Source: Octopus vulgaris (lineage: Eukaryota). From it: a stretch of DNA of 64,000 nucleotides. The stretch spans positions 95,542,001 through 95,606,000 of the forward strand of contig OX597817.1 in the NCBI GenBank assembly GCA_951406725.2, read 5' to 3'. The notes beneath the pieces are model-generated. The model made no database searches. It had not been told where the DNA came from and worked only from the letters and a program-made list of their open reading frames with translations. This document shows positions 3,880-59,572 of the stretch, piece after piece (the stretch's first letter is position 1; each line of letters begins with the position of its first letter). Both the position numbers and the translations under genes were made by a program.

Positions 3880-4423
3880 TCGTCTGCAGATATTGAATAG
3901 TTTTTGTAAACTTTTACACAGTTCTATCCCTTCTAAGTTTTCTTAGTTTTTTTTTGTAATGTTTGTACAAAAACTTAGTATACAAAAAAAAAAACGAAAC
4001 AAAAAGAAACTTACTTTTTTCTTTAATGCAGTATGTTGTTCCCTGAAAAATGAAAAAAAAAAAAAAAAAAAAAAACGTAAGCATTTATTAAAATTTTAAT
4101 TTATTCTCATTTAGAAAAGTAAAATTTCAAATTACAGGTATAGAGAACATCTAAATGTACTTTATACACATAAATGCTTAAAATAATAACTTCATGGGTA
4201 GATTCAAGTAATATTAATAGTATATTAAAGGTGCTTAGTCAATCATTAAGTGAGATAAAATTTGAAAATGATATCCTACAATATTATTCCCCAACCATTG
4301 AAAAGCTCTGACAATATTTACTCCATCAAAACCAGGAAGTAATAACTTGTATAACAACTTTCCTACTTCATTTGTTTGGGCAGTCGGAAATGTAAAATTC
4401 ACAACTCTGCCAGTGCGCAACCT

Positions 4424-4475
4424 TAATGATGATGATGATAATAATAATAATAATAATAATAATGATGATGATAAT

Positions 4476-4539
<64 letters not shown>

Positions 4540-4614
4540 TTGATGATGATGATGATGACGATGACGACGACGACGACAATGATGATGATAATAATAATAA
4601 TGATGATGATGATG

Positions 4615-4682
<68 letters not shown>
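4424..4682. repeat. Compound trinucleotide microsatellite (AAT/GAT/GAC)n, target of the adjacent R4/Dong element
   Basis: Directly visible. Confidence 0.95.
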
Positions 4683-4687
<5 letters not shown>

Positions 4688-6204
4688 CAAATATTTAGGG
4701 ATAAATGAAGGCTCTGGTATTCAGCATGCAAGCATGAAAGAGAAGATCAGGAAGGAATGTTATAGGAGAGTTCGTGCAGTCCTGAAATCTGAACTAAATG
4801 CACGTAACAAGGTGTTAGCTATAAATTCCTTAGCAGTTCCAGTTGTTACTTATAGCTACAATGTGTTGAACTGGAATATGAGTGAAGTAAAGACTATAGA
4901 TAGGAAAATACGCAAGCTGCTGAGTTGTAATAGGATGCACCACCCAAAGGCAGACGTAGATCGCCTTTACCTTCCCAGAGCCCAAGGAGGTCGAGGCCTG
5001 ATCCAATTTGAACTAGCTTACAAAACAACCACAATTGGACTGGCCAAATATCTCGAAATATCGAATGACTGGATGCTAAAGCTCGTGGAAAATCACGAGA
5101 GACGAAAGAAGCTTCATTCTATCATAAAGGAAAGCAAAAAATGTGCTATTGATCTCGTGCAGGATACCCAAACAGAACAACCCGAGGGAAGTACGGCAAT
5201 TATTGTTGCAAAGAAGGTGAAAATAATGGCAACGAAAAAAGCGCACGAGCAATTGGCTGATAGGTGGGAGGAGAAACCTCTGCACGGCAAATATGTGACC
5301 CGCAGCAAACAAGCTGATGTTGACCAGAAGCAAACCCATCAGTGGCTACGGAGCTCAGGGCTAAAAGCAGAGAGCGAAGGTTTCATCCTGGCTGCTCAAG
5401 ATCAAAGCCTATTAACCCGGAACTACCAGGCCAATGTGATGAAAAATGGAGCAGACCCAAAATGCCGATTCTGCAACGACATGATTGAAACAGTGGACCA
5501 CCTAATCTCTGGATGTAAAGTCTTAGCTCCAGTGGAGTATAAATTAAGACATGACAGAGTTGGCCAATATCTACACTGGCTAATAAGTCGGCATTACAAT
5601 ATCAAAACTGCCGACAAGTGGTATAATCACCACCCTGAGGCTGTAACTGAAGGAGAAAATGTAACGATTCTGTGGGACTTTCCAGTACATACAGACCGAA
5701 CCATCAAGGCCAATAAACCAGATATTGTTGTGAAAGACCAAAACAATAAAGTTTGCTTATTGATCGACATGAGCATCCCCTGTGATCATAATATCTCAGC
5801 GAAAGAGTTTGACAAGCTCAGAAAATATAAAGACCTACTCATTGAAATTGAGAAAATGTGGCATCTCAAGGCGATTACAATACCAGTGATCGTAGGAGCA
5901 CTAGGAATGATCAAGAAGGGAACCGAAAATTATATGAGAATGATCCCTGGCTTACCATCCCTGCAAGAAGTGCAAAAGATTGTCTTAACTGGTACATCAC
6001 ACGTATTGAGAAGAGCATTGTCGATGTGAGAACTGTTGCTGCTCATGTATTTTAATTTAACTTAAAAAAAAAAAAAAAAAAATGAACGAACTATTGAGTT
6101 TGGTTTAATGGCCTACCAATGTATACTATGAGTTTCTTTGCCCTAGGAGTCGGGAAGACACTCGGCAAGAAATGGAAGCAAATTTGAAAGAAGAAAAAAA
6201 AAAG
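4683..6204 (+). mobile_element. 5'-truncated R4/Dong-clade non-LTR retrotransposon (RT thumb, CCHC knuckle, RLE, 3' UTR) inserted in (TAA)n
   Basis: Uninterrupted frame 4683-6029 with KYKYLG, GGRGL, CRFC..HLISGC, RHD and KPDIVV..LIDMSIP..K..KY (PD-(D/E)xK). TAA repeats on both sides, the known Dong target. Confidence 0.9.
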
Positions 6205-9477: not shown

Positions 9478-10045
9478 ATTATTTATTGCCCACAAGGGGC
9501 TAAACATAGAGGGGACAAACAAGGACAGATAAAGGGACTAAATCGATTACATCGACCCTAGTGCGTAACTGGTACTTATTTAATCGGCGGAATTTGAGAT
9601 CAGAACGTAGCGGCAGAAGAAATACCTATTTCTTTACTACCCACAAGGGGCTAAACACAGAGGAGACAAACAAGGACAAACAGACGGATTAAGTCGATTA
9701 TATCGACCCCAGTGCATAACTGGTACTTAATTTATCGACCCCGAAAGGATGAAAGGCAAAGTCGACCTCGGCGGAATTTGAACTCAGAACGTAGCGGCAG
9801 ACGAAATACCTATTTCTTTACTACCCACAAGGGCCTAAACACAGAGAGGACAGACAAGGACAGACAAACGGATTAAGTCGATTATATGGACCCCAGTGCG
9901 TAACTGGTACTTTTTTAATCGACCTCGAAAGGATGAAAGGAAAAGTGGACCTCGGCGGAATTTGAACTCAGAACGTAGCGGCAGACGAAAAACCGCTAAG
10001 CATTTCGCCCGACGTGCTAACGTTTCTACCAGCTCACCGGCTTCA
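9478..10045 (-). mobile_element. Head-to-tail trimer of family A SINE with Tx1-like tail
   Basis: Three units of up to ~190 bp with the repeated junction GAAATACCTATTTCTTTACTACCCACAAGGG. A full tRNA head is present only on the rightmost unit. Confidence 0.85.
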
Positions 10046-23401: not shown

Positions 23402-23452
<51 letters not shown>

Positions 23453-23551
23453 TTTATTTAAAGCAGCAGAAAATTCAACAAAACCTGTTACTCTGAGTTT
23501 CCCATTGCCGTTCATCGGACATATATATATATATAACACCTGCATCTAGCA

Positions 23552-23598
23552 AAAACTGTCCGATGAACGGCAACGGGAAACTCAGAGTAACAGGTTTT
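23552..23598 (+). ncRNA. Minimal type I hammerhead ribozyme variant (core CCGAUGA) in a Penelope-type terminal fragment
   Basis: CTGT-CCGATGA-ACG-GCAA-CGG-GAAA-CTCAGAG-TA-ACAG. Helix I CTGT/ACAG, near-palindromic helix III, GUA site. An inverted copy lies at 23452-23521. Confidence 0.6.
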
Positions 23599-23697
23599 GT
23601 TGAATTTTCTGCTGCTTTAAATAAAGCATATTACTCTACCACTGGTATTTGAGTACTCTTTTTTCCACCTTGTTTCACATTTATGTGTTTACTCCGG

Positions 23698-23732
<35 letters not shown>

Positions 23733-23932: not shown

Positions 23933-23935
<3 letters not shown>

Positions 23936-24872
23936 TAAGTAATTAAGGGTTTAGCAACGATTTGCCTCACCACACACCGAATTTAGAAATAGCAGTCAAA
24001 GAGTTATAGCTATTCTTTCTACTAAAAGGGAAATCTCAGTAAAACCACAGCACTTGAAAGGCAAACACAGACAGGCAAGAGAGAAAGAAATGACGGCAAT
24101 CTATCATACAATTTTAAGTCACCTACGGACGTACGTTTCGAAATTAAGTTTTAGGAAAGCATAAGAATTAGATAATTATGTCTTACCCAACTTCTTTTCT
24201 CATCAGCGTAGGACACTACAATTATGAATAATTGTATATTAAATTTCGAGGTACTAGAAGGCATCATCTCAACTCAGTATCAGAGCGAGCTAAAGCCGTT
24301 ACCAGTATCACCAAATTCAAAGTGTGAATGAAAGTTTGTGTCACCAACCTCTTCCCACCAGCGTGTAGCCAAGACAATATGTTGTGGTCATCTACTGGGA
24401 TGAAATATGGTTATCAGTAATAATATAGGGTGAAATTAATTAATTTGGAATAATCATTAATTTCACCAAGTAGATTTCGGCATGTAAAAGCCTCATTCGA
24501 GGAAAGTTTAAGTAATACTAAGTAATTAAGGGTTTAGCAACGATTTGCCTCACCACACACCGAATTTAGAAATAGCAGTCAAAGAGTTATAGCTATTCTT
24601 TCTACTAAAAGGGAGATCTCAGTAAAACCACAGCACTTGAAAGGCAAACACAGACAGGCAAGAGAGGAAGAAATGACGGCAATCTATCATACAATTTTAA
24701 GTCACCTACGGACGTACGTTTCGAAATTAAGTTTTAGGAAAGCATAAGAATTAGATAATTATGTCTTACCCAACTTCTTTAGCTCGCTCTGATACTGAGT
24801 TGAGATGATGCCTTCTAGTACCTCGAAATTTAATATACAATTATTCATAATTGTAGTGTCCTACGCTGATGA
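23933..24872 (-). mobile_element. Non-coding HHR-bearing partial-tandem element (583-nt unit) with a 5' inversion, adjacent to (TA)n
   Basis: 23933-24197 is repeated at 24516-24780 (2 differences seen); 24777-24872 is the reverse complement of ~24200-24295. Confidence 0.85.
24122..24212 (-). ncRNA. Type I hammerhead ribozyme with long helix II
   Basis: CCTACG-CTGATGA-GAAA..(long stem)..TTTC-GAAA-C-GTAC-GTC-CGTAGG. Perfect 6-bp helix I, intact core, palindromic ACGTACGT helix III, GUC site at 24128/24127. Confidence 0.88.
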
Positions 24873-34045: not shown

Positions 34046-34872
34046 AAGATAACTACTAAATACCTGATAAACAAGAGAGGCACAGAAGCCATCAAACTTC
34101 CACATTGTGATAGAAAATGTCATTTATGCTATACCAGTGTGGAGGATATCACCAACATCATCAGCAGCTTCCCTAAATGTCTATAAGGTTCTACCTACAT
34201 CAATACTTGCAAAGCCTATTTACATTACTATTCTCTCGAAGCGTTACCTTGACGGATACATGGAAAGCATGTCGGAACCGAAGTGTATACACCTTTAAAA
34301 ACAAGGAATATTGGTGAAATATTCCAATAAAAATAACACTCCGGTGAAAACACAAAGGACTTGATATTGTTCATTGGAGCAGGGGACAAAAGTTATGCAC
34401 TCTTGTAGAGGTTAGCTGCCCAGCGGATATATAATCAAAAGTTCAAGAAAAAGAAAATATTTATGTTGAACTAAAGCGGAACTTAAAGCTCTTGTACCCT
34501 GGCTCTAAATTTTCTTTTGTACCTGTCATCATTGGTTCATCAAACTATGTAAGTAGGGTTTTGCATAAAAATCTAGAATTCTTAGGATTTTTTATGATAC
34601 AGCAAAAGAAACTGACGCGCTCCTTCCAAATCAAATTTTCACTTCCATTTTAAACTGTTTTCTTACCTAATATTCACTCCGTCCACGTGAAACTGTTGAT
34701 GTGAATACATATATGCAAGTATAATTTTTTATTTTGCTAATTGTTTATGACACTATATTCAGTGATATACGGAAATAACAGTTCGCGATATACAAGAGTA
34801 TATAATAGGGATATACGGAATAATAGGAATATAATAGGGATATACGGAATTAACAGTTCGCGATATACAAGA

Positions 34873-34930
<58 letters not shown>

Positions 34931-34934
<4 letters not shown>

Positions 34935-35615
34935 ACAATAAAGGAACGGCCATAATAGGCCATTCACCCACTAGAAATAACAGCCAAAGCTTCAACCGCA
35001 AATAAAAGTTAATTCAGTAAACCAGGAGAAAATTTAAAAAACATTTACCCTGTAATTTCTTATACGATATACCGTTTCATCTGCTGATTAATGGTAAACT
35101 AACCTGATTAAATTAAATCAAGCTAATCTTCCACAGGCCCTCAGATTCTTCAGTAAGAAATAGCCCAAGACGGAACAGATATTTTCACGAGGCATTTCCG
35201 ACGTTGCCAAGTTTATATCTGACCTAAAATTTTCAAATCGTCGCACTCGCGCCAAATTTATCGGCAGCAAATAAATATAAGCCGTCGATTCCATTACGGA
35301 ATTAACCAGAAAATTCATAATTAATCAATATAGGGTGGCAAAAAAAATTTTGTAGAATTCTTTTGCCACCAGCGGCCTAGTAGGAAAAAATTAAAATAGT
35401 CATAGACCATTTTTAAGTTCAACATCAACAATAAAGGAACGGCCATAATAGGCCATTCACCCACTAGAAATAACAGCCAAAGCTTCAACCGCAAATAAAA
35501 GTTAATTCAGTAAACCAGGAGAAAATTTAAAAAACATTTACCCTGTAATTTCTTATACGATATACCGTTTCATCTGCTGATTAATGGTAAACTAACCTGA
35601 TTAAATTAAATCAAG

Positions 35616-35620
<5 letters not shown>
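34931..35620 (-). mobile_element. Non-coding HHR-bearing partial-tandem element (493-nt unit) embedded in (TA)n
   Basis: 34931-35127 is repeated at 35424-35620 with no differences seen; (TA)n on both sides; no credible ORF. Confidence 0.88.
35055..35161 (-). ncRNA. Type I hammerhead ribozyme with long helix II
   Basis: ATTTCTTA-CTGAAGA-ATCTG..CAGAT-GAAA-CGGTATATCG-TA-TAAGAAAT. 8-bp helix I, intact core, near-palindromic helix III, GUA site at 35063/35062. Confidence 0.9.
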
Positions 35621-35660
<40 letters not shown>

Positions 35661-42837: not shown

Positions 42838-42843
<6 letters not shown>

Positions 42844-44290
42844 TCGACTGTATCCTTGCCTCCCTAGTGGCTTCCCTCCCCTCCCACATCCACGACACTA
42901 ATCATGCTCTCCGTCTCTTCAACTCTTTCTCCTTCCCTCCTTGCCCTTCTAGACTTCTCTTCACTCTTGATATCAAGGGTCTATATACGGTGATCCCACA
43001 CAACGAAGAACTCCTTGTATTCAAACACTTCCGAAACCTTCGATCCAGTCCCCAATCTGACACCTCCATAATTCTTCGTCTGGCCGAATTTGTTCTCTCC
43101 CTCAACTGCGTCTCGTTCGCGGGGTATTTTTACCAACACCTCTCGGGAGTGGCCGTGGGAACAAAAATGGGCCCCAACTATGCGAATCTGTTCGTTAGAT
43201 ATGTTGAGGCCCAAATATTCTCACGATTCACTCCCGAACTATACGGTCGTTATATTGATGACTCTATCGGGGTGACCTCGCTCTCGTGCGAACAACTTGA
43301 CTCCTTCCTATCTTTTGTCCAATCCTTCTATCCTGTCTTCGAATTCTCCTGACTATTTCCAACACTCCTGTCGCATTTCTCGACATTTCGGCCAATGTAC
43401 ACCACTCCGTACTCACTACCCCCATCCACTACAAACACACCGACTCACACTCTCCATTCCTTACTCCCAATTCCTCCATCTGTGCAGGCTCTGCAGTGAC
43501 AACCGTGACTTTCAGACTCATGGTTCTCTACTTCATCCTTTGTAGATATCCCCTCACCACTATCCACACAGCACTTGCCAGAGCACATTCCGTGTACCGG
43601 TCCTCTGCTCTCTCTTCCCGTACCCGCCCCACCGTTGCCCGTCTCTCATTTCCCCTCATATACCCTCCACTCTGTCCCACCAACACACCATTCTTCGAAC
43701 CTTCCGTCGATTCCAGTTCGACACCTCCACCTCACACATCTTCCCCAACCTACCCCTTCTCTCCTTCAAATGACCCCCATCCTGCGTGACCTCCTGGTCC
43801 GCAGTTTCTACCCTAAGCCCACCTCCCAACCTGGCTCGTTCCCCTGCTCCCGACCACGCTGCCGCACTTACCCCTACCTCTCCAATACTACCATCCTCAC
43901 AGGCATTCATCATCGTCCCTATCATATCACTGACTCCTTTATCTGCCCTTCTAGAAACGTCATTTACTTCATCTCCTGCTCTTTCTGCCCTTCCCTATAC
44001 ATCAGTCAAACGGAACGTCGCTTGGCTGACCGGTTCATGGAACACCTCCGAGATATCAAACTCGGCAATGACACTCCGGTCTTGCGCCATTTCCGCTCTA
44101 CCGGTCATTCATTACAACACCTGTATGTGTTCGGATTGTCTTTGCACAGGATCCATCCGGATTCCCGCCTTCGCCGCGAACAAGAATTAATCTTCCCTCT
44201 TCGCCCTTTGCCCCACATGGGCTCAACTCTCCTCCACTCTTCATCTGACTCCTCTCCTCTCTTCATCTGACACCTACTTCCTCCCTTCAC
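42838..44290 (+). mobile_element. Penelope-like element (Neptune-type) RT + GIY-YIG pseudogene
   Basis: LDIKGLYTVIPH, GVAVGTKMGPNYANLF and RYIDD; Cys linker PCSRPRCRT; NVIYFISC..LYISQT..R..EH. Confidence 0.9.
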
Positions 44291-45730: not shown

Positions 45731-45794
45731 TAAGGATTTCAATCTGGTTCTGGTGAATCGAAGTCGATTCACCAGAACCAGATTGAAATCCTTA
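45731..45794. repeat. Perfect 31-bp inverted repeat with 2-nt spacer
   Basis: TAAGGATTTCAATCTGGTTCTGGTGAATCGA-AG-TCGATTCACCAGAACCAGATTGAAATCCTTA. Confidence 0.95.
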
Positions 45795-47035: not shown

Positions 47036-47460
47036 GTTTTCAAATTTTGGCACAAGGACAGTAATTTCGGAGTCGATTACATCGCTCCCAGTACTCAGCT
47101 AATACTTATTACATCGATCTTGAAAGCATGAAAGGCAAAGTAGACCTCGACGGAATTTGAATTCAGAAGATAAAGATGGATTAAATGTTCTGTTGTGTCT
47201 GGGGAGAGTCATTTTCTTTTTGTGCCTTATAATGTAACACACTCACCGGTAAAATTTCACTTATTTCTTATTTTTATTATTATTTAGGAAAATAAAAATA
47301 AGTGGAAATTTTACCGGCGAGTGTGTGTGTTACATTATAAGGCACAAAAAAAAAAATGACTCACCCCAGACACAACAGAACATTTAGAATATGCTTCAAC
47401 ACACGAACTCAAATAAAGAATCTTGCAAACCAAATCCGAAAAAGGACTAAATGTTGCTAA
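47036..47460 (-). mobile_element. Family A SINE interrupted by a fold-back insertion (~95-bp inverted arms)
   Basis: SINE at 47036-47187; arms at ~47183-47277 and ~47289-47385; the SINE resumes at GGACTAAATGTTGCTAA (~47444). Confidence 0.65.
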
Positions 47461-47719
47461 CCTAGACATACACAATACTTAACAAAGTTCTGAGAATATA
47501 TATATGTATATATATATAATAAAAATAATTTCTTAGGTAACCAGAAGATAGATTTGGTATTAATCTTTATTTTATACAACAGTCGTTTCAACTCATCCTG
47601 CTATTGTCTCCTATGGGTTGGACTCGTTCAACATGTTATGTTGCATCCATTTTGCAGACATATAACAACATGGCAGCCAAAACTCAGGATCATTAGCGAG
47701 ACACAACTTTATGTATGGA

Positions 47720-47825
47720 TGTACCTGATTAGGCTCAGACTGCAAAATGGATGCGACACAACATATTGAACGGAGTCGCACCCATAAGGGACAATAGCAG
47801 GATGGGTCGAAACGACCGTTGTACA
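47720..47825 (+). ncRNA. Type I hammerhead with very long helix II and core substitution G8U (probably inactive)
   Basis: TGTAC-CTGATTA-GGCTCA..TGGGTC-GAAA-C-GACC-GTT-GTACA, with inner pairing ATGGATGCGAC/GTCGCACCCAT. An inverted copy of 47740-47874 lies at 47524-47657. Confidence 0.7.
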
Positions 47826-48328
47826 AAATAAAGATTAATACCAAATCCATCTTCTGGTTACTTAAGAAATTATTATTATTATCTCAACTAACACTGCAGA
47901 GTTCCTGAAGTAGATTCAACGGAAACATACGCCGACTGCGGATGACACCAGGTAGCCCAAACTGTGCCAGTGCTCTACTAAACACTTCAACACACTAATC
48001 GACATATACCCATTAGTTCAAAATATCATATATATAACATACACACATACGCACGCGCACAGACACACACACACGTCCAAATTTAGGGCAATGGAGAGGG
48101 TGAAATGCAGGCTATATAGTTTGCTAGCTAGCAGAATCTCGGAAGTAATAATTACTCAACGAGGGGTACTCCACTAGCAACTCATCTTTCTGCGTCAATA
48201 AATCACTATTATTCCTGAAAGTTGTGTGTTTCATACATTCTACCGACTGTTCGAAGCTTACACACACACACACGCGCACGCACGCACGCACGCACGCACG
48301 CACACACACATACAAAGAGAGACACACA

Positions 48329-51768: not shown

Positions 51769-53231
51769 ATTTTTTTCTATTTTCGATTGCATTGTTTACA
51801 TAAACGTGTTCGCATACAAAACGTCATAACTTACAGTGCTGGCTCTGAATTCTATAGAAAATCTATAGAGATAAACTTAAAAATATAATTACTCACTCCT
51901 GCAGTGCCTACTGCATGATACAGGAATAAAGTTGTTTTCAGAGTATGTATTAAAATTGCTGTCATTACTTTGTGTATTTTGAATATGTATTTTTAATCAA
52001 ATTATTTTTTAAATGTTTCTTGATTTTGAGCTGAAAGTTTTATATCTTCTAGGCTACAAGGGTACCACCCAAACATAATAATATGAAGTAAGATATACTT
52101 TATCTAAATATCTAAGTGCTTTTCTATGAGCAGTGATTTACCATTTACATTGTAGAGGGTTTACAGCTAAAGCATATCTAAGTTTTAGAATTTAACTCTT
52201 AGAAACACATTAAAACTAAAATATGTGAATGTTAATGTTTCCGCGTATTTTTTGCTTTTTAGTTGTGTAGTTGATCAGAAATAGAATCTAATCTCCTTTA
52301 GTCTATTCTTCAGTTCTTTTCTTTAGTTTGTTTCAGCCAAAACCATACTGGAGCACTACTTAGGTTTACAAAACTATTTTAGACTTTTAAAAACTTAGTA
52401 ATTACAACTAAGTTATGAATAAATATAGAGTCATATCCGCATATTTAGTCTCAGCGATATTTGGGCACCAAGGGCTTTTCGGTAGTTTGGAATGAAGATC
52501 GGGGTGTCTGGTAGAATTGTTACTTGGAAATTTATCAGAATCAGTTTACTGCCCTTCTCTAAGTAACCTGAGACTACTCGTTACAATGTAAACAAGCATG
52601 TGTCTCGGCAAATGTTATTCACAAAATGGCACAAGGTTGACGACCTGAAAATAATTATTCGAGTACCAATAGAACATGAATATATATAAGTATGGTTTGT
52701 AAATAAATAGGCTATAAATAGTTTCGTACTTATCTGAATATGATCTTTCACATTATAATGTCTATAATTTATGTTACGATAATGGGGAAAGGATCCTATC
52801 CTTTTGATCTCTAAATTTTTGAATCTTTTAATTTAGAGTAGATGATTATTTAATATATGCTTACAAAGTCTAATATTTAAACTTTATTTGTTAGATTGTA
52901 TAATGGATTGACGCATAATATTGTTATATGAACAAGTAATACTTTGCATCGTTACATATGTAGGATAATAACACAGATTCAACCTCATAATCTCAATACA
53001 TCACCTTTGTGATGTACTGAGGTTATAAGGTTGGATTATATAGTGCATTGTATATATAAGAAAAATAAACATTTAAATTGAATGGTCATTCAAAATACAT
53101 CTCATATTGCGCCAAATATTCTCTTTATAAAGATTGTTCTATTCTTTCATAAATGGTGAACCAAGAGACCTAAAGACAAGTTAGACATCGTTTAGCTATT
53201 TAATGTACGGAAAAGCACACTATCAATACAT

Positions 53232-53622
53232 ACACTCCATCTCGTACTGAGTTCGACTTTGCCCTTCATCCTTTCGGGGTTGATAAAATAAGTAGCAGTT
53301 GCACACTGGAACCGATGTATTCAACTATCTTCATTCCCGCCAAAATTTCAGACCTTGCGCTTATAGTAGAAAAGAATATATACCCTTTATCTACCTCGCT
53401 CTGCTTCATCTTACGAATTCTTAATATGATATTCCTTATATATATATACATATATAAAGGTAGATAAAGGGTATATATTCTTTTCTACTATAAGCGCAAG
53501 GTCTGAAATTTTGGCGGGAATGAAGATAGTCGAATACATCGGTTCCAGTGTGCAACTGCTACTTATTTTATCAACCCCGAAAGGATGAAGGGCAAAGTCG
53601 AACTCAGTACGAGATGGAGTGT
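53232..53622. repeat. 165-bp inverted duplication of a SINE fragment plus flank
   Basis: 53232-53396 matches the reverse complement of 53458-53622 with one mismatch seen; the second arm lies inside (TA)n. Confidence 0.92.
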
Positions 53623-53623
53623 G

Positions 53624-53674
<51 letters not shown>

Positions 53675-54279
53675 AATATAAAAAAAAACGTTAGACACAA
53701 AGAGAAATGAAAACATAGAAAACAAACTTTTTTTCGAACAACGAAAAAAACCAGAGAAACGAGACATGCAACATAAAGAATATTCTCCTTCATATTCCAG
53801 TTTCATATACCCCGCGTTTTCGAAGGTAAGGATAATACACAACTTCGATGAAACAGTCCTTCCCGCAAAGCAAATTAAATAACATTTGGGATTTTTTGCG
53901 GAGGGTGAAAGTGGTAACAAGAACAGGACAGTGAGAATAAGACTGTAAAAACAAACGGTGAGGCTGTTGAGCCAAGACGATAGAAAAATTATTATGAACA
54001 CTAGGAGGACGAGCTATGAGAGGAGACAGGTATAAGCACATCTTGTCTTTAGGAAGGAAATGGACAGAAAGATAGATTCCCTTTCGTCACGTGTCAGAGT
54101 CAAGGCGGAAGAGTGAGAGAGAGAGAGAGAGAGAGAGAGGGGGGAACAGTGAAGAGGAGAGGAGAAGAATGTGTAGCCACAACACATTCTCTATTTTCTC
54201 TCCTTGTTTCTTTCTGTGTTCCTTCCTGTGGAAGAGCGTAAGCTCGAGACGTTAAAGACTTTTTCACTTCCAATATTAA

Positions 54280-54785: not shown

Positions 54786-55633
54786 AACTTGCTTTCTATG
54801 TTATGTCCACGCACAAGTTTTATTGATCTCATTATACCTATTACTTTTATTTTTCATATATTTTTATATATATATCATAGAGAATTTGGTTTATAGATAT
54901 ATTTTTGTACACATAATTTTCTGTACTCTACCTTCCACCCTGCATTTTTCCTTGTGCCTATATAAACGTGTATATGGAATCATTTGTACGCGCGTGTAGA
55001 TGTGTACGTCTGTGCAGGTATGTATGTATATAGATGTGTGCATGTGTGCGGGCATAAGAGTACATATATGTATAGACGTTTTTACTCAGTGTTTTTACAA
55101 TTTTTCCTGTTTTTTTCTTTTTAGACGTATGTATAATCCTTTTTGTGCGTGCGCGTGTGTATGCGTATATAATTGTGTGCGGGTATGTGCATATATGGGC
55201 GTGTCTGTGTGTGCGTGCATAAGGATATGTCCGTATACGAACGTGGTTTACTCTTTGTATACTTCCTTATGCCTTTTTTTCTGTATTGTTACCATTAACT
55301 CTGTTTTTTCTTGTGCTTGTGCGTATGTAGAAATATGTATGAACTTTTACGGTGCGCGTGTGTGTGTGTGGGTTTGTATGTATATGCATATACATTTGGC
55401 GAAAGATGCGAGTGAATATGCGTACGTTTTTCTAGTGATGTATGCGTACGTACGTAGGTGTGCGAGCGCACATGTGTACGTATGAACAGGCGCGCTTACG
55501 CGTATACTATTGAACATTTTACCTTACCTTAATTAGCGGTCATTCGAATAGCGCTTTTGTATAAATAGCGATCTATAACACAGTAATTTCCCTTTGTATA
55601 ACGGTCTTTTTTCATAGCGTTTTCCTGATGGCC

Positions 55634-55696
55634 GGATAACTGAAGAGATGGTGGTGTGGATTTCCACTTCGGCATCCGAAACTTAGAGTTTTATCT
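55634..55696 (+). ncRNA. Type I hammerhead downstream of the Naiad-type endonuclease
   Basis: GATAA-CTGAAGA-GATG..CATC-C-GAAA-CTTAGAG-TT-TTATC, on the same strand as the upstream EN. Confidence 0.7.
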
Positions 55697-55742
55697 TGGC
55701 TACCGAATAATTGTCACATTATATTTACAGATATATATATAT

Positions 55743-56143
<401 letters not shown>

Positions 56144-57406
56144 TATATGTACATATATCAAATAGAGATAAGGGAATAAGTTTATTCTCAAATGCAGGAT
56201 AATGTTAATAATAAAGCATGAACAGGATAAACTATCCATATTTTGCAGAAAAATCTGTCGTCGGCCGTCGTTGCCAGGCAATTTTTACAATAGAATGTCT
56301 TATATCAATTTATAATTATTCTATATCAGAGCATGCCTTCCTCGACAGATAGGCTTCTTAACCAGCACAGATTTGTGCAATTTTTCGCCAAAAAACTTCG
56401 TTGAGGATTTTTTTCCTTTCTAAATTATTTACATGTCTGTTCGACTGTTTGACATGACTTTATTCATTAAAACTTCAAAAGTTCTTACAACTTTGGTCGG
56501 TGTAATGCTTTGCTTTGGATTGTTTAGTAAAAATTCCTCATTCTAATGATTTTGCTTTCATTTCGTGATAGACGGCTATCATACAGAAAATGCCAGTTTC
56601 CAAATCCTGTAAAATTAATTAAACTTTAAAACTTAGTAACATTTTTCTGCAACTTTTCTGGGATAAATAAATAACAAAATCGGATTTAAAGTGGAAAACT
56701 ATTTCAATATACCAAATTTTGAAGTTTTGATGTAATTCTAAAATCTCACAATGTATGACAGCAACAGGAAGGATACTACAGAAGTAGAGAGACAGACGTG
56801 ACACACACAGATGTGACAAATAGGACGTGACACACACACACACACTTACAAATGTACACACAGCTAATCACGAGTTTAAAATGGTGTATAGTAGACATAT
56901 ATGAGCATGTATGTACGTACGTATGTGTGTGTGTGTGTGTATGAGTGTGTTTGTGTGTGTGGGTGGGTGTCTGTGTGAGTGTCGCTTTGTGATGGATAGC
57001 AGAAAAGCTACCTACTTTATCCCTCCTTAAAGCTTCGTATTCCTCATATCCCGCTTTCTGTATGTGTGTTGTATATATGTATTTACGAAAGTATGTATGC
57101 AATGTTTCATTTATATAACAGCTGTAGTAAAGTTAGCTTCCTATTGTCACCGCTGTTCTCGCTTTCACTGATATAAGTCACCCTCTCTTTGTTACTACCC
57201 TTCCTTCAGACTAATAATTTTTGCAACCTTCTCATTTTATCATGATTTCAGATTTTTATTGAAATTCAATTAGCCTATTATTGAACTGGATGTTATTGTA
57301 ACATCTATGCAAAGTTTTGTGAATATTGGTTCTCTGGTTTAGGCACTAATATGGTAATAGACAGGCAAAATATATATATGTGTGCGTGTGTGTATATGTA
57401 TGTGTG

Positions 57407-57438
<32 letters not shown>

Positions 57439-57469
57439 TATATATATATTTCTGTCCTTTTTTTATATA

Positions 57470-57542
<73 letters not shown>

Positions 57543-57546
<4 letters not shown>

Positions 57547-57700
57547 AGAGTTTACGAAAAAAACAAAAGACGAAGACGGGTGGTGTACAAAACAAACAGA
57601 AGTATTAGTATAACGCTCAGAAATAGAAAAAGTCTTTTACGTTTCGAGCCTACGCTCTTCTACAGAAAGGGACACAGAAAAAACAAGGACAAAAAAATAT
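57543..57700 (-). mobile_element. Penelope-type terminal fragment in (TA)n with a variant minimal hammerhead (57634-57669)
   Basis: CTTT-CTGTAGAA-GAGC-GTAG-GCTC-GAAAC-GTA-AAAG; a related copy is on + at 54221-54257. Confidence 0.55.
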
Positions 57701-57705
57701 ATATA

Positions 57706-57748
<43 letters not shown>

Positions 57749-57889
57749 AATGAAAGACGGAAATGGAATATACGAGAATTTATTATTGATCATTATATAT
57801 ATGTTTGTCGTCACTTCAACGTTGCTGTTCCCTTCGAACGGACGTTTAATAACTAGCTTCTTTGCTTTTGTATGTGTGTGTGTGTGTAT

Positions 57890-58812: not shown

Positions 58813-59572
58813 AGCCGGGCGAAATGCGTAGCCGTATTTCGTCTGCCGTTACGTTCTGAGTTCAAATTCCGCCGAGGTCGACTTTGCCTTTCATCCTTTC
58901 GGGGTCGATAAATTAAGTACTAGTTACGCACTGGGGTCAATGTAATCGACTGAATCCATTTGTCTGTCCTTGTTTGTTGCCCTCTGTGTTTAGCCCCTTG
59001 TGGGTAGTAAAGAAATAGAAATAGGCATTTCATCTGCCGCTACGTTCTGAGTTCAAATTCCGTCGAGGTCGACTTTGCTTTTTATCTTTTCGGGGTCGAT
59101 TAAATAAGCACCAGTTACGTACTTGGGTCGATATAATCGACTTAATCCCTTTGTCTGTCCTAGTTTGTCCACTCTATGTTTAGCCCCTTGTGGGTAGTAA
59201 AGAAATAGGTATTTCGTCTGCCGCTACGTTCTGAGTTCAAATTCCGCCGAGGTCAACTTTGCCTGTCATGCTTTCGGGGTCGATTAAATAAGTACCAGAT
59301 ACGCACTGGGGTCGATATAATCGACTTAATCCGTTTGTCTGTCCTTCTTTGTCCCCTTTGTGTGTAGCCCTTTGTGGGCAGTAAAGAAATAGGTATTTCG
59401 ACTGCCGCTATGTTCTGAGTTCAAATTCCGCCGAGGTCGCCTTAGCCTTTCATCCTTTCGGGGTCGACTAAATAAGTACCAGTTACGCACTGGGGTCGAT
59501 GTAATCGACTTAATCCCTTTGTCTGTCCTTGTTTGTCCCCTCTATGTTTAAACCTTTGTAAAGAAATAAGAA
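58813..59572 (+). mobile_element. Head-to-tail tetramer of family A SINE
   Basis: Four ~185-190-bp units joined at GAAATAGG|TATTTC. Confidence 0.9.

Follow-up and report, generated by a model that had tools for sequence, protein, structure and literature searches.

A probable recent insertion of a non-autonomous hammerhead retroelement in a (TA)n tract of Octopus vulgaris

Layout of the insertion and anatomy of its hammerhead

The window, i.e. the whole 64-kb stretch of Octopus vulgaris DNA that was analyzed, consists of microsatellite-rich animal DNA with decayed LINE and PLE fragments. It contains a partial tandem insertion, E1, flanked on both sides by (TA)n and organized as follows.

34933..35618, minus strand (RNA sense): whole insertion E1, 686 nt, 1.4 copies of a 493-nt non-coding unit
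34874..34932, no strand: (TA)n tract at the 3' junction (target microsatellite), its last 2 nt common with the element
34931..35127, minus strand: 3' copy of a 197-nt direct repeat (pseudo-LTR-like), containing the 3' end of E1
35128..35423, minus strand: single-copy part of the unit, 296 nt
35424..35620, minus strand: 5' copy of the 197-nt repeat, 5'-truncated, assigned to a second copying round
35548..35620, minus strand: half hammerhead, with the helix II 3' arm, GAAA, palindrome, GUA (cut after 35556) and helix I 3' strand
35619..35657, no strand: (TA)n tract at the 5' junction, with 2-nt AT microhomology

The two copies of the 197-nt repeat (34931-35127 and 35424-35620) are 100% identical with a period of 493 nt, and the (TA)n-embedded tandem element of the original prediction was thus recovered. 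The identity that it had reported for two overlapping copies also stands; the copies are the two ends of a 1.4-mer, not overlapping DNA. The 2 nt at each repeat end are AT and common with the flanking (TA)n, leaving 193 nt, in which 0 differences were found (95% upper bound of divergence 1.6%). Zero divergence is consistent with youth; conversion or assembly collapse could also yield identity. Junction microhomologies of 2-3 nt should be fairly frequent where (TA)n meets AT-rich DNA and were not counted as evidence, and a target-site duplication is unreadable inside (TA)n. The E1 unit has a GC content of 0.351, and the longest stop-free frame inside the insertion is 68 aa, with no RT/GIY-YIG ORF. 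No tRNA-like head was identified, as 0 tRNA genes were detected in the window and no convincing A/B box was seen by eye. Within the window there is one copy of E1, and no match of E1 to the pLTR of any autonomous PLE. Adjacent to the left (TA)n tract, a 44-nt segment is duplicated 75 nt apart with 95% identity (34761-34879, ending at the tract) and could represent the terminus of a further TA-linked element; its 12-nt match to E1 (E=5.4) does not exceed chance.

The complete hammerhead (HHR) lies across the boundary of the 3' repeat copy.

35055..35161, minus strand: complete type I hammerhead, from strict descriptor and fold
35161-35154 / 35062-35055, minus strand: helix I, AUUUCUUA/UAAGAAAU, 8 bp
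35153-35147, minus strand: core CUGAAGA
35146-35079, minus strand: helix II domain, 68 nt, predicted -25.2 kcal/mol
from 35078, minus strand: GAAA
35075-35064, minus strand: helix III palindrome ACGGUAUAUCGU
35065-35063, minus strand: cleavage triplet GUA, predicted cut after 35063

The conserved parts CUGANGA...GAAA...NUH occur in type I order with three helices around the core. Every part named for a GUA hammerhead at 35055-35161 in the original prediction is present on the minus strand, including the 8-bp helix I, the CUGAAGA core, the 5-bp basal helix II (AUCUG/CAGAU) and its extension, in which 17/18 positions are paired with one A.A mismatch and several G.U. Helix III, described as near-palindromic, is self-complementary at 12/12 positions when G.U is counted, forming 3-4 bp in cis and 12 bp in trans. 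Pair 10.1-11.1 is A-U in place of the usual G-C, which is typical, not obligatory, and the rest of the core is canonical; several non G-C bases are found at this position among the PLE HHRs in File S2 of PMC8557442 (here and below, published work is cited for the passages drawn upon). In the half hammerhead neither CUGAAGA nor the helix I 5' strand is present. As had been predicted, the 5' copy stops inside helix II, with its end falling in the 5' arm (35618-35620, equivalent to 35125-35127). The cut site is consequently contained twice (35063 and 35556), and the 3' end of E1 is 130 nt past it.

In order to estimate chance occurrence, block-wise dinucleotide shuffles of the window were searched with the strict HHR descriptor, which matched twice in the window (E1 and 24206) and in 0 of 300/300 shuffles. 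The E1 hammerhead is not a chance match. The 131-nt region around it folds with z=-3.17. A search against Rfam gave 0 gathering hits, and none of the 13 matches at E<=10 was to a hammerhead family; the 68-nt helix II is the probable cause. Predicted secondary structure places an internal loop in helix I (GGCU/UA) and further internal loops in helix II; the A10.1-U11.1 pair, together with the lack of any evident contact between loops 1 and 2, suggests that cleavage would be slow.

Folding of the E1 monomer yielded a predicted ground state in which the core (UACUG) is paired with the helix III arm (CGGUA). The active fold lies 1.8 kcal/mol above it and represents ~2% of the predicted ensemble, with the helix III hairpin contributing only ~-0.1 kcal/mol. 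The duplex between two copies of the palindrome is predicted at -13.6 kcal/mol, and the MFE of the dimer cofold is a double hammerhead at -73.4 vs 2 x -31.8 (-63.6) kcal/mol, a gain of ~10. The predictions thus have the ribozyme largely misfolded when monomeric and favored as a double hammerhead, so that "intact", as it was originally called, applies to the sequence but not to the predicted monomer ground state or to the A-U pair at 10.1-11.1. These predictions agree with published accounts of dimer dependence among type I hammerheads of animals and those of PLEs (PMC4209133, PMC7229834, PMC6765202, PMC3088659); of the Xenopus retrozyme dimers examined in vitro only 1/9 was cleaved (bioRxiv 10.64898/2026.07.22.740005).

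In the 686-nt RNA of the whole locus, the two palindromes are predicted to pair with P~0.78. Relative to the MFE, the fold with the full core facing the upstream half site costs 1.5 kcal/mol (~1% populated), and the monomer fold with the full core on its own site 4.6 kcal/mol. On these predictions, the full core of a locus transcript could in principle cut the upstream half site, but release of a monomer would further depend on cleavage at the core's own site, for which the monomer fold is predicted to be poorly populated. As a circle, the E1 unit folds at -132.5 kcal/mol (z=-5.1, 62% paired; 0/40 shuffles as stable), far more strongly than its antisense at -88.9 kcal/mol.

A second element and a shared module

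A comparison element lies elsewhere in the window.

23935-24872, minus strand: E2, 583-nt unit

E2 has the partial-tandem layout of E1, with a direct repeat of 266 nt carrying 2 differences. Its hammerhead has the core at 24206, a GUC site with the cut after 24128, a 60-nt helix II and a palindromic helix III. Folding predictions are alike, with a dimer MFE of -46.2 vs 2 x -19.0 kcal/mol and trans pairing at P~0.94. The 3' end of E2 adjoins (TA)n, and at its 5' end 96 nt (24777-24872) are inverted with a 4-nt junction microhomology, which by sequence reads as a TPRT-type signature and has the geometry of twin priming. The 5' flank (24873 onward) looks by eye like a mariner transposase 3' end.

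Although their units are otherwise dissimilar, E1 and E2 have several features in common around the 3' end of the insertion, i.e. the putative start of copying. In E1 these are the following.

35465..35482, minus strand: 18-nt block, 16/18 identical to E2, at -56 from the E1 copying start; second copy at 34972-34989
35377..35467, minus strand: predicted multiloop of the continuous unit, enclosing the copying start; closed by helix CUAGUGGG/CCUACUAG (P 0.68-0.76), with hairpins predicted inside it at 35458-35437 and 35413-35393
35327..35370, minus strand: GGUG...CACC hairpin, 13 bp, P~0.89, then CUAUAUU; stem at +56 to +92 from the start; common to E2

When the two elements were aligned on their 3' ends, the block fell at -56/-66, GGUG at +56/+51 and CACCCUAUAUU at +89/+86 (E1/E2). 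The best single local alignment is not significant alone, as 33/500 shuffles reach its score, whereas none of 2000 shuffles attained the near-diagonal two-block score of 48. Likewise, a shared 11-mer alone is obtained in ~15-16% of shuffles, while a shared 11-mer closing a hairpin in both elements was found in 0/3000 and 1/3000 shuffles and in 0/1214 overlapping real segments. Across 12 positions of the hairpin stem, 12/12 are paired in both elements; 6 are identical and 5 changed on both sides. In the predicted folds of both, the start lies in a U-rich single strand of a multiloop with an 8-10 bp closing helix, followed by the hairpin. An enclosing helix alone is no evidence (235/500 and 202/500 shuffles); a multiloop with a hairpin within 12 nt of the closing helix occurred in 2/500 and 2/500 shuffles and 8/584 real windows, a post hoc comparison in which an initial 3-nt limit failed on the observed sequences and was relaxed to 12 nt. 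The combined E1/E2 statistics were defined after the data had been seen. A global MAFFT alignment misaligned the shared blocks and was not used.

Searches beyond the pair gave little. With 1 mismatch, CACCCTATATT is not enriched in the window (3 found vs 1.9 expected), and a scan of prokaryotic genomes for the 18-nt motif returned 6 loci with best matches of 18-24 nt, i.e. chance level. In the supplements of PMC8557442, 0/6 E1/E2 motifs matched as exact strings in line-wrapped text, and other E1/E2 terms gave single matches in the Naiad, Chlamys and Hydra consensus files, only in unrelated-looking coding sequence. No description of the E1 family or of the module was found in the freely readable papers searched, though either may already be in print.

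The shared blocks and covarying hairpin form a candidate PLE initiation signal, drawn from two elements (n=2) and predicted folds. The simplest reading is distant common ancestry of E1 and E2, with cis signals for a helper PLE retained; alternatively, the CUAUAUU motif may be a DNA promoter element.

Hammerhead-like motifs are not confined to these two elements. An earlier relaxed scan of the window gave no matches; a later one recovered 5 HHR-like cores vs 0.4 expected per shuffled window and still missed a further element, E3.

35153, 24206 and 55640: canonical HHR cores from the relaxed scan
57665 and 35267: HHR-like cores with one core change, from the relaxed scan

A further variant was found by eye at ~23560. 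With at least 3 canonical cores in 64 kb, hammerhead elements are routine in this genome; in the giant squid, 235 Rfam hammerhead-1 hits have been listed (PMC6962438). Rfam found no hammerhead over 55500-57800 either, missing the HHR-like motifs at 55640 and 57665.

Several of these motifs have recognizable surroundings. E3 (23452-23699) is (TA)n-embedded and contains a short plus-strand HHR with core CCGAUGA, helix III ACUCAGAGU and GUA near 23592, and a partial copy lies in inverted orientation at 23452-23521. The HHR structure is not formed in the predicted fold of E3. Its helix III and downstream sequence resemble, by eye, Hydra-clade rows of File S2 and Hydra-2_Amil (PMC8557442). At 55630-55705 (plus strand) is a type I HHR with canonical core CUGAAGA, a 31-nt helix II, a GUU site and a 6-bp helix I, and ~30 nt past it are a short TA run and SINE-like sequence. 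A short repeat between TA tracts at 57544-57700 (minus strand) carries an HHR-like motif with the changed core CUGUAGA at 57665, and a more decayed copy lies at ~54200-54270 (plus strand), near 54230. Inside E1 itself, 35218-35272 (minus strand) holds a possible degenerate minimal HHR with core CUGCCGA at 35267, an AAUU helix III and a weak G.U-rich helix I; the MFE structure of this motif is a different fold, so it is probably vestigial or due to chance.

Other repeats of the window comprise 184-nt tandem SINE-like arrays at 9479-10011 and 58834-59559 (2.2 and 3.9 copies, with fragments dispersed across the window) and long fold-back (inverted) duplications at 45731-45794, 47182-47386, 47516-47882 and 53226-53628 with arm identities of 79-97%. 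The C-terminal part of a LINE ORF at 4302-6029 (plus strand) forms an open frame of ~447 aa behind a long (AAT/GAT)n tract, suggesting recent LINE activity. In a protein search, one LINE protein of the window had named relatives in marine invertebrates, a fish and a beetle.

Origin of the insertion and rival explanations

On its testable features E1 qualifies as an animal non-LTR retrozyme or a non-autonomous PLE. As a metazoan non-LTR retrozyme, it has a short head-to-tail unit with a type I HHR, is non-coding and highly self-paired, and has a GC content <50%; as a non-autonomous PLE, it has a pseudo-LTR partial tandem with a 5'-truncated upstream copy, a sense HHR near its 3' end and a microsatellite site. 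With one complete and one half HHR, E1 is not an 'active' locus as defined by Li et al. 2026, a definition that applies to the copy and not to the family. An autonomous PLE was excluded by the missing RT + GIY-YIG ORF, and a tRNA-derived SINE by the missing tRNA-like head.

Metazoan non-LTR retrozymes (Cervera & de la Pena 2020, PMC7229834; Li et al. 2026, bioRxiv 10.64898/2026.07.22.740005) are, like E1, non-coding, low-GC, self-paired and tandem with one type I HHR per unit, and their mobilization by PLEs through tandem cDNA from circles has been proposed. The 493-nt unit is above the 150-450 bp of the 2020 paper and within the 51-972 bp of the 2026 preprint. E1 differs from described retrozymes in its 1.4 units, single complete HHR and 68-nt helix II. 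Hydra-clade EN+ PLEs (Craig et al. 2021, PMC8557442), as well as Neptune and Naiad, resemble E1 in the (TA)n target, the partial tandem and an HHR shortly before the 3' end, and the HHRs tabulated in File S2 frequently have U at 11.1 and a palindromic helix III. The Hydra helix II stems in that table are 3-7 bp with short loops, in contrast to the 68 nt of E1, which also has no RT/EN ORF. By exact motif, no sequence match of E1 was found among the PLE consensi of that paper. Naiads are without canonical HHRs. Dimer-dependent type I HHRs of newt and axolotl satellites and of PLEs share with E1 a weak palindromic helix III and a long helix in the dimer (PMC4209133, PMC7229834, PMC6765202); E1 differs from these HHRs in its 12-nt palindrome, very long helix II and A10.1-U11.1 for G-C.

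The preferred explanation, to which we assign a probability of roughly 0.8, is that E1 is a recent insertion of such a non-autonomous hammerhead retroelement with a 493-nt unit. A source locus would give rise to a more-than-unit minus-strand RNA, in which two ribozyme copies would pair via the 12-nt palindrome into a double hammerhead; this could release monomers, which a host ligase may circularize. The RT/GIY-YIG protein of an autonomous (TA)n-targeting PLE would nick a (TA)n tract, probably after recognizing the shared blocks that flank the start, and cDNA synthesis would begin internally, in the U-rich single strand inside the conserved multiloop. One unit and 193 nt of the next would be copied, on a circle or an uncut tandem RNA, and the cDNA would be joined to the target by 2-nt microhomology, producing one full and one half ribozyme. 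The original prediction included neither the predicted dimer dependence nor the PLE link, and the mechanism itself is already in print (PMC4209133, PMC7229834), including a 2014 proposal of more-than-unit copying of a circle (PMC4209133). (TA)n preference with HHRs near the 3' end is reported for Hydra-clade PLEs (PMC8557442), and PLE partial tandems consist of a 5'-truncated upstream copy joined by microhomology (PMC3846280). Within the window, a degenerate, frameshifted PLE-type RT + GIY-YIG-like region with a Cys-rich linker lies at 42840-44230 (plus strand), with no HHR beside it; it was rejected as the helper of E1 because it is too decayed. We take this region to be Neptune-like.

The layout supports E1 as a young, single reverse-transcription insertion from a more-than-unit template. 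For a single event running more than once around a circular or tandem template, as originally proposed, the cut site crossed twice, the 0/193 differences and the same layout in E2 speak in favor; circle and tandem are not separable. Copying of a cut linear monomer would have ended after 130 nt, which leaves a religated circle or an uncut multimer as the template. It is close to an even chance, leaning slightly against, that the template was an uncut linear tandem transcript, with the HHR dispensable for insertion and the identity of the copies reflecting a homogeneous source array. The double crossing of the cut site is explained equally well by such a template, and the predicted monomer fold of E1 is mostly inactive. 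Furthermore, in the sole in-vitro PLE study, uncut RNA was the dominant substrate with internal initiation, HHR catalytic mutants left insertion unchanged, and no reads ended at the cut site (PMC11167929). A circle is favored by the abundant circles in which animal retrozymes accumulate (PMC7229834), by the high self-pairing of the E1 unit (z=-5.1), and by the perfect identity of copies, which is automatic on a circle.

In the same in-vitro study of Poseidon PAc of Anolis (Frangieh et al. 2024), initiation occurred 85-92 nt 3' of the HHR cut, as computed from the paper's coordinates, and downstream RNA was required. PAc thus resembles E1 in an internal RT start downstream of the cut and in AT-rich targets; it is autonomous and starts in an AC-rich stem-loop, whereas E1 would start in a predicted single strand rich in U, 130 nt beyond the cut. 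The ~54-61 nt that PAc requires beyond its start are a loose parallel to the shared hairpin of E1 at +56 to +92.

The suggestion that copying stalled in a stable stem is doubtful, since the stem had already been opened when copying ended. At the E1 stop, the RT had left the 31-nt 3' arm and the loop behind and was 10-12 nt into the 5' arm of helix II; it enters the hairpin at the 3' arm and had crossed the whole helix in the first round. By this reasoning, a stem-caused stall should fall at the 3' base of the stem. Fold-back of the cDNA was rejected as a terminator, being weak (-2.2 kcal/mol for E1 and -4.5 kcal/mol), and a transcription start inside helix II was excluded as the cause of the 5' end for E2, since the inverted piece there extends the copied sequence upstream by another 96 nt. 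E2 also ends in its helix II 5' arm, 2-3 nt from the core, where this arm represents 4.5% and the whole helix II 10% of the unit. The ends of both elements hint that 5' truncation may be non-random (n=2).

Other explanations were also weighed. It is improbable that E1 is an isolated derivative of an autonomous PLE that arose by internal deletion, with a truncated upstream pLTR, a deleted ORF and no family of 493-nt units. Microhomology-mediated deletions are common in PLE copies (PMC3846280) and E1 has a single copy in the window, but no long frame is left, the whole unit folds far better than shuffles, and E2 independently has the same short-unit plan. It is very unlikely that a monomer was inserted between (TA)n tracts and the 197-nt repeat was then created by duplication of local DNA or by an assembly join. 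The hairpin and motif adjoin the internal junction on its inner side, and E2 has them at a matching offset, as expected of a continuous unit, the layout is that of a standard PLE partial tandem, and the 2 differences in the E2 repeat mean that its layout is no collapse artefact. In favor of a later duplication are a short imperfect repeat at the internal junction (UGUUGA/UGUUGAA), the repeat-rich window, and the perfect identity that conversion or assembly collapse could also give. There remains a rolling-circle DNA element (Helitron/Helentron-like) carrying an HHR by chance, with the hairpin and CTAT as its terminus, which we regard as scarcely credible. Such elements do form partial tandems, and the hairpin with its CTAT is reminiscent of a Helitron 3' end; however, the hairpin here is internal, not terminal, G.U-rich helices are viable on a single strand (sense -132.5, antisense -88.9 kcal/mol), E2 has a TPRT-type inversion, and both 3' ends adjoin (TA)n.

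Implications for hammerhead retroelements

The class of E1 and its proposed mechanism are known, and the ribozyme itself is unsurprising given the frequent HHRs in the window. More notable than the hammerhead are the module common to E1 and E2, which is the new lead, and the 1.5-ribozyme prediction. Cutting of the locus is predicted to be asymmetric, with the half site cut first and the full core's own site poorly.

A broader proposal, offered tentatively as one that may well prove wrong, is that a group of retrozymes with long helix II, including E1 and E2, keeps a cis RNA module bracketing the internal RT start despite otherwise unalignable sequence, with the 18-nt block upstream, the multiloop around the start, and the GGUG/CACC hairpin and CUAUAUU downstream. 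The module would be the recognition signal for a helper PLE; its downstream half would be uncopied in the first round, forcing a circular or tandem template. The second round would tend to end beside the core, leaving 1.5 ribozymes whose half site could be cut by the full core, and 1.4-mers might in this way re-seed circles.

Open questions named in PMC8557442, PMC11167929 and bioRxiv 10.64898/2026.07.22.740005 are how an RNA and a start site are selected by PLE proteins, and whether retrozymes move by way of circles or of uncut multimers. The E1/E2 module names specific nucleotides and helices as mutation targets. As a very young 686-nt insertion with readable junctions that is probably polymorphic, E1 would provide a clean test case.
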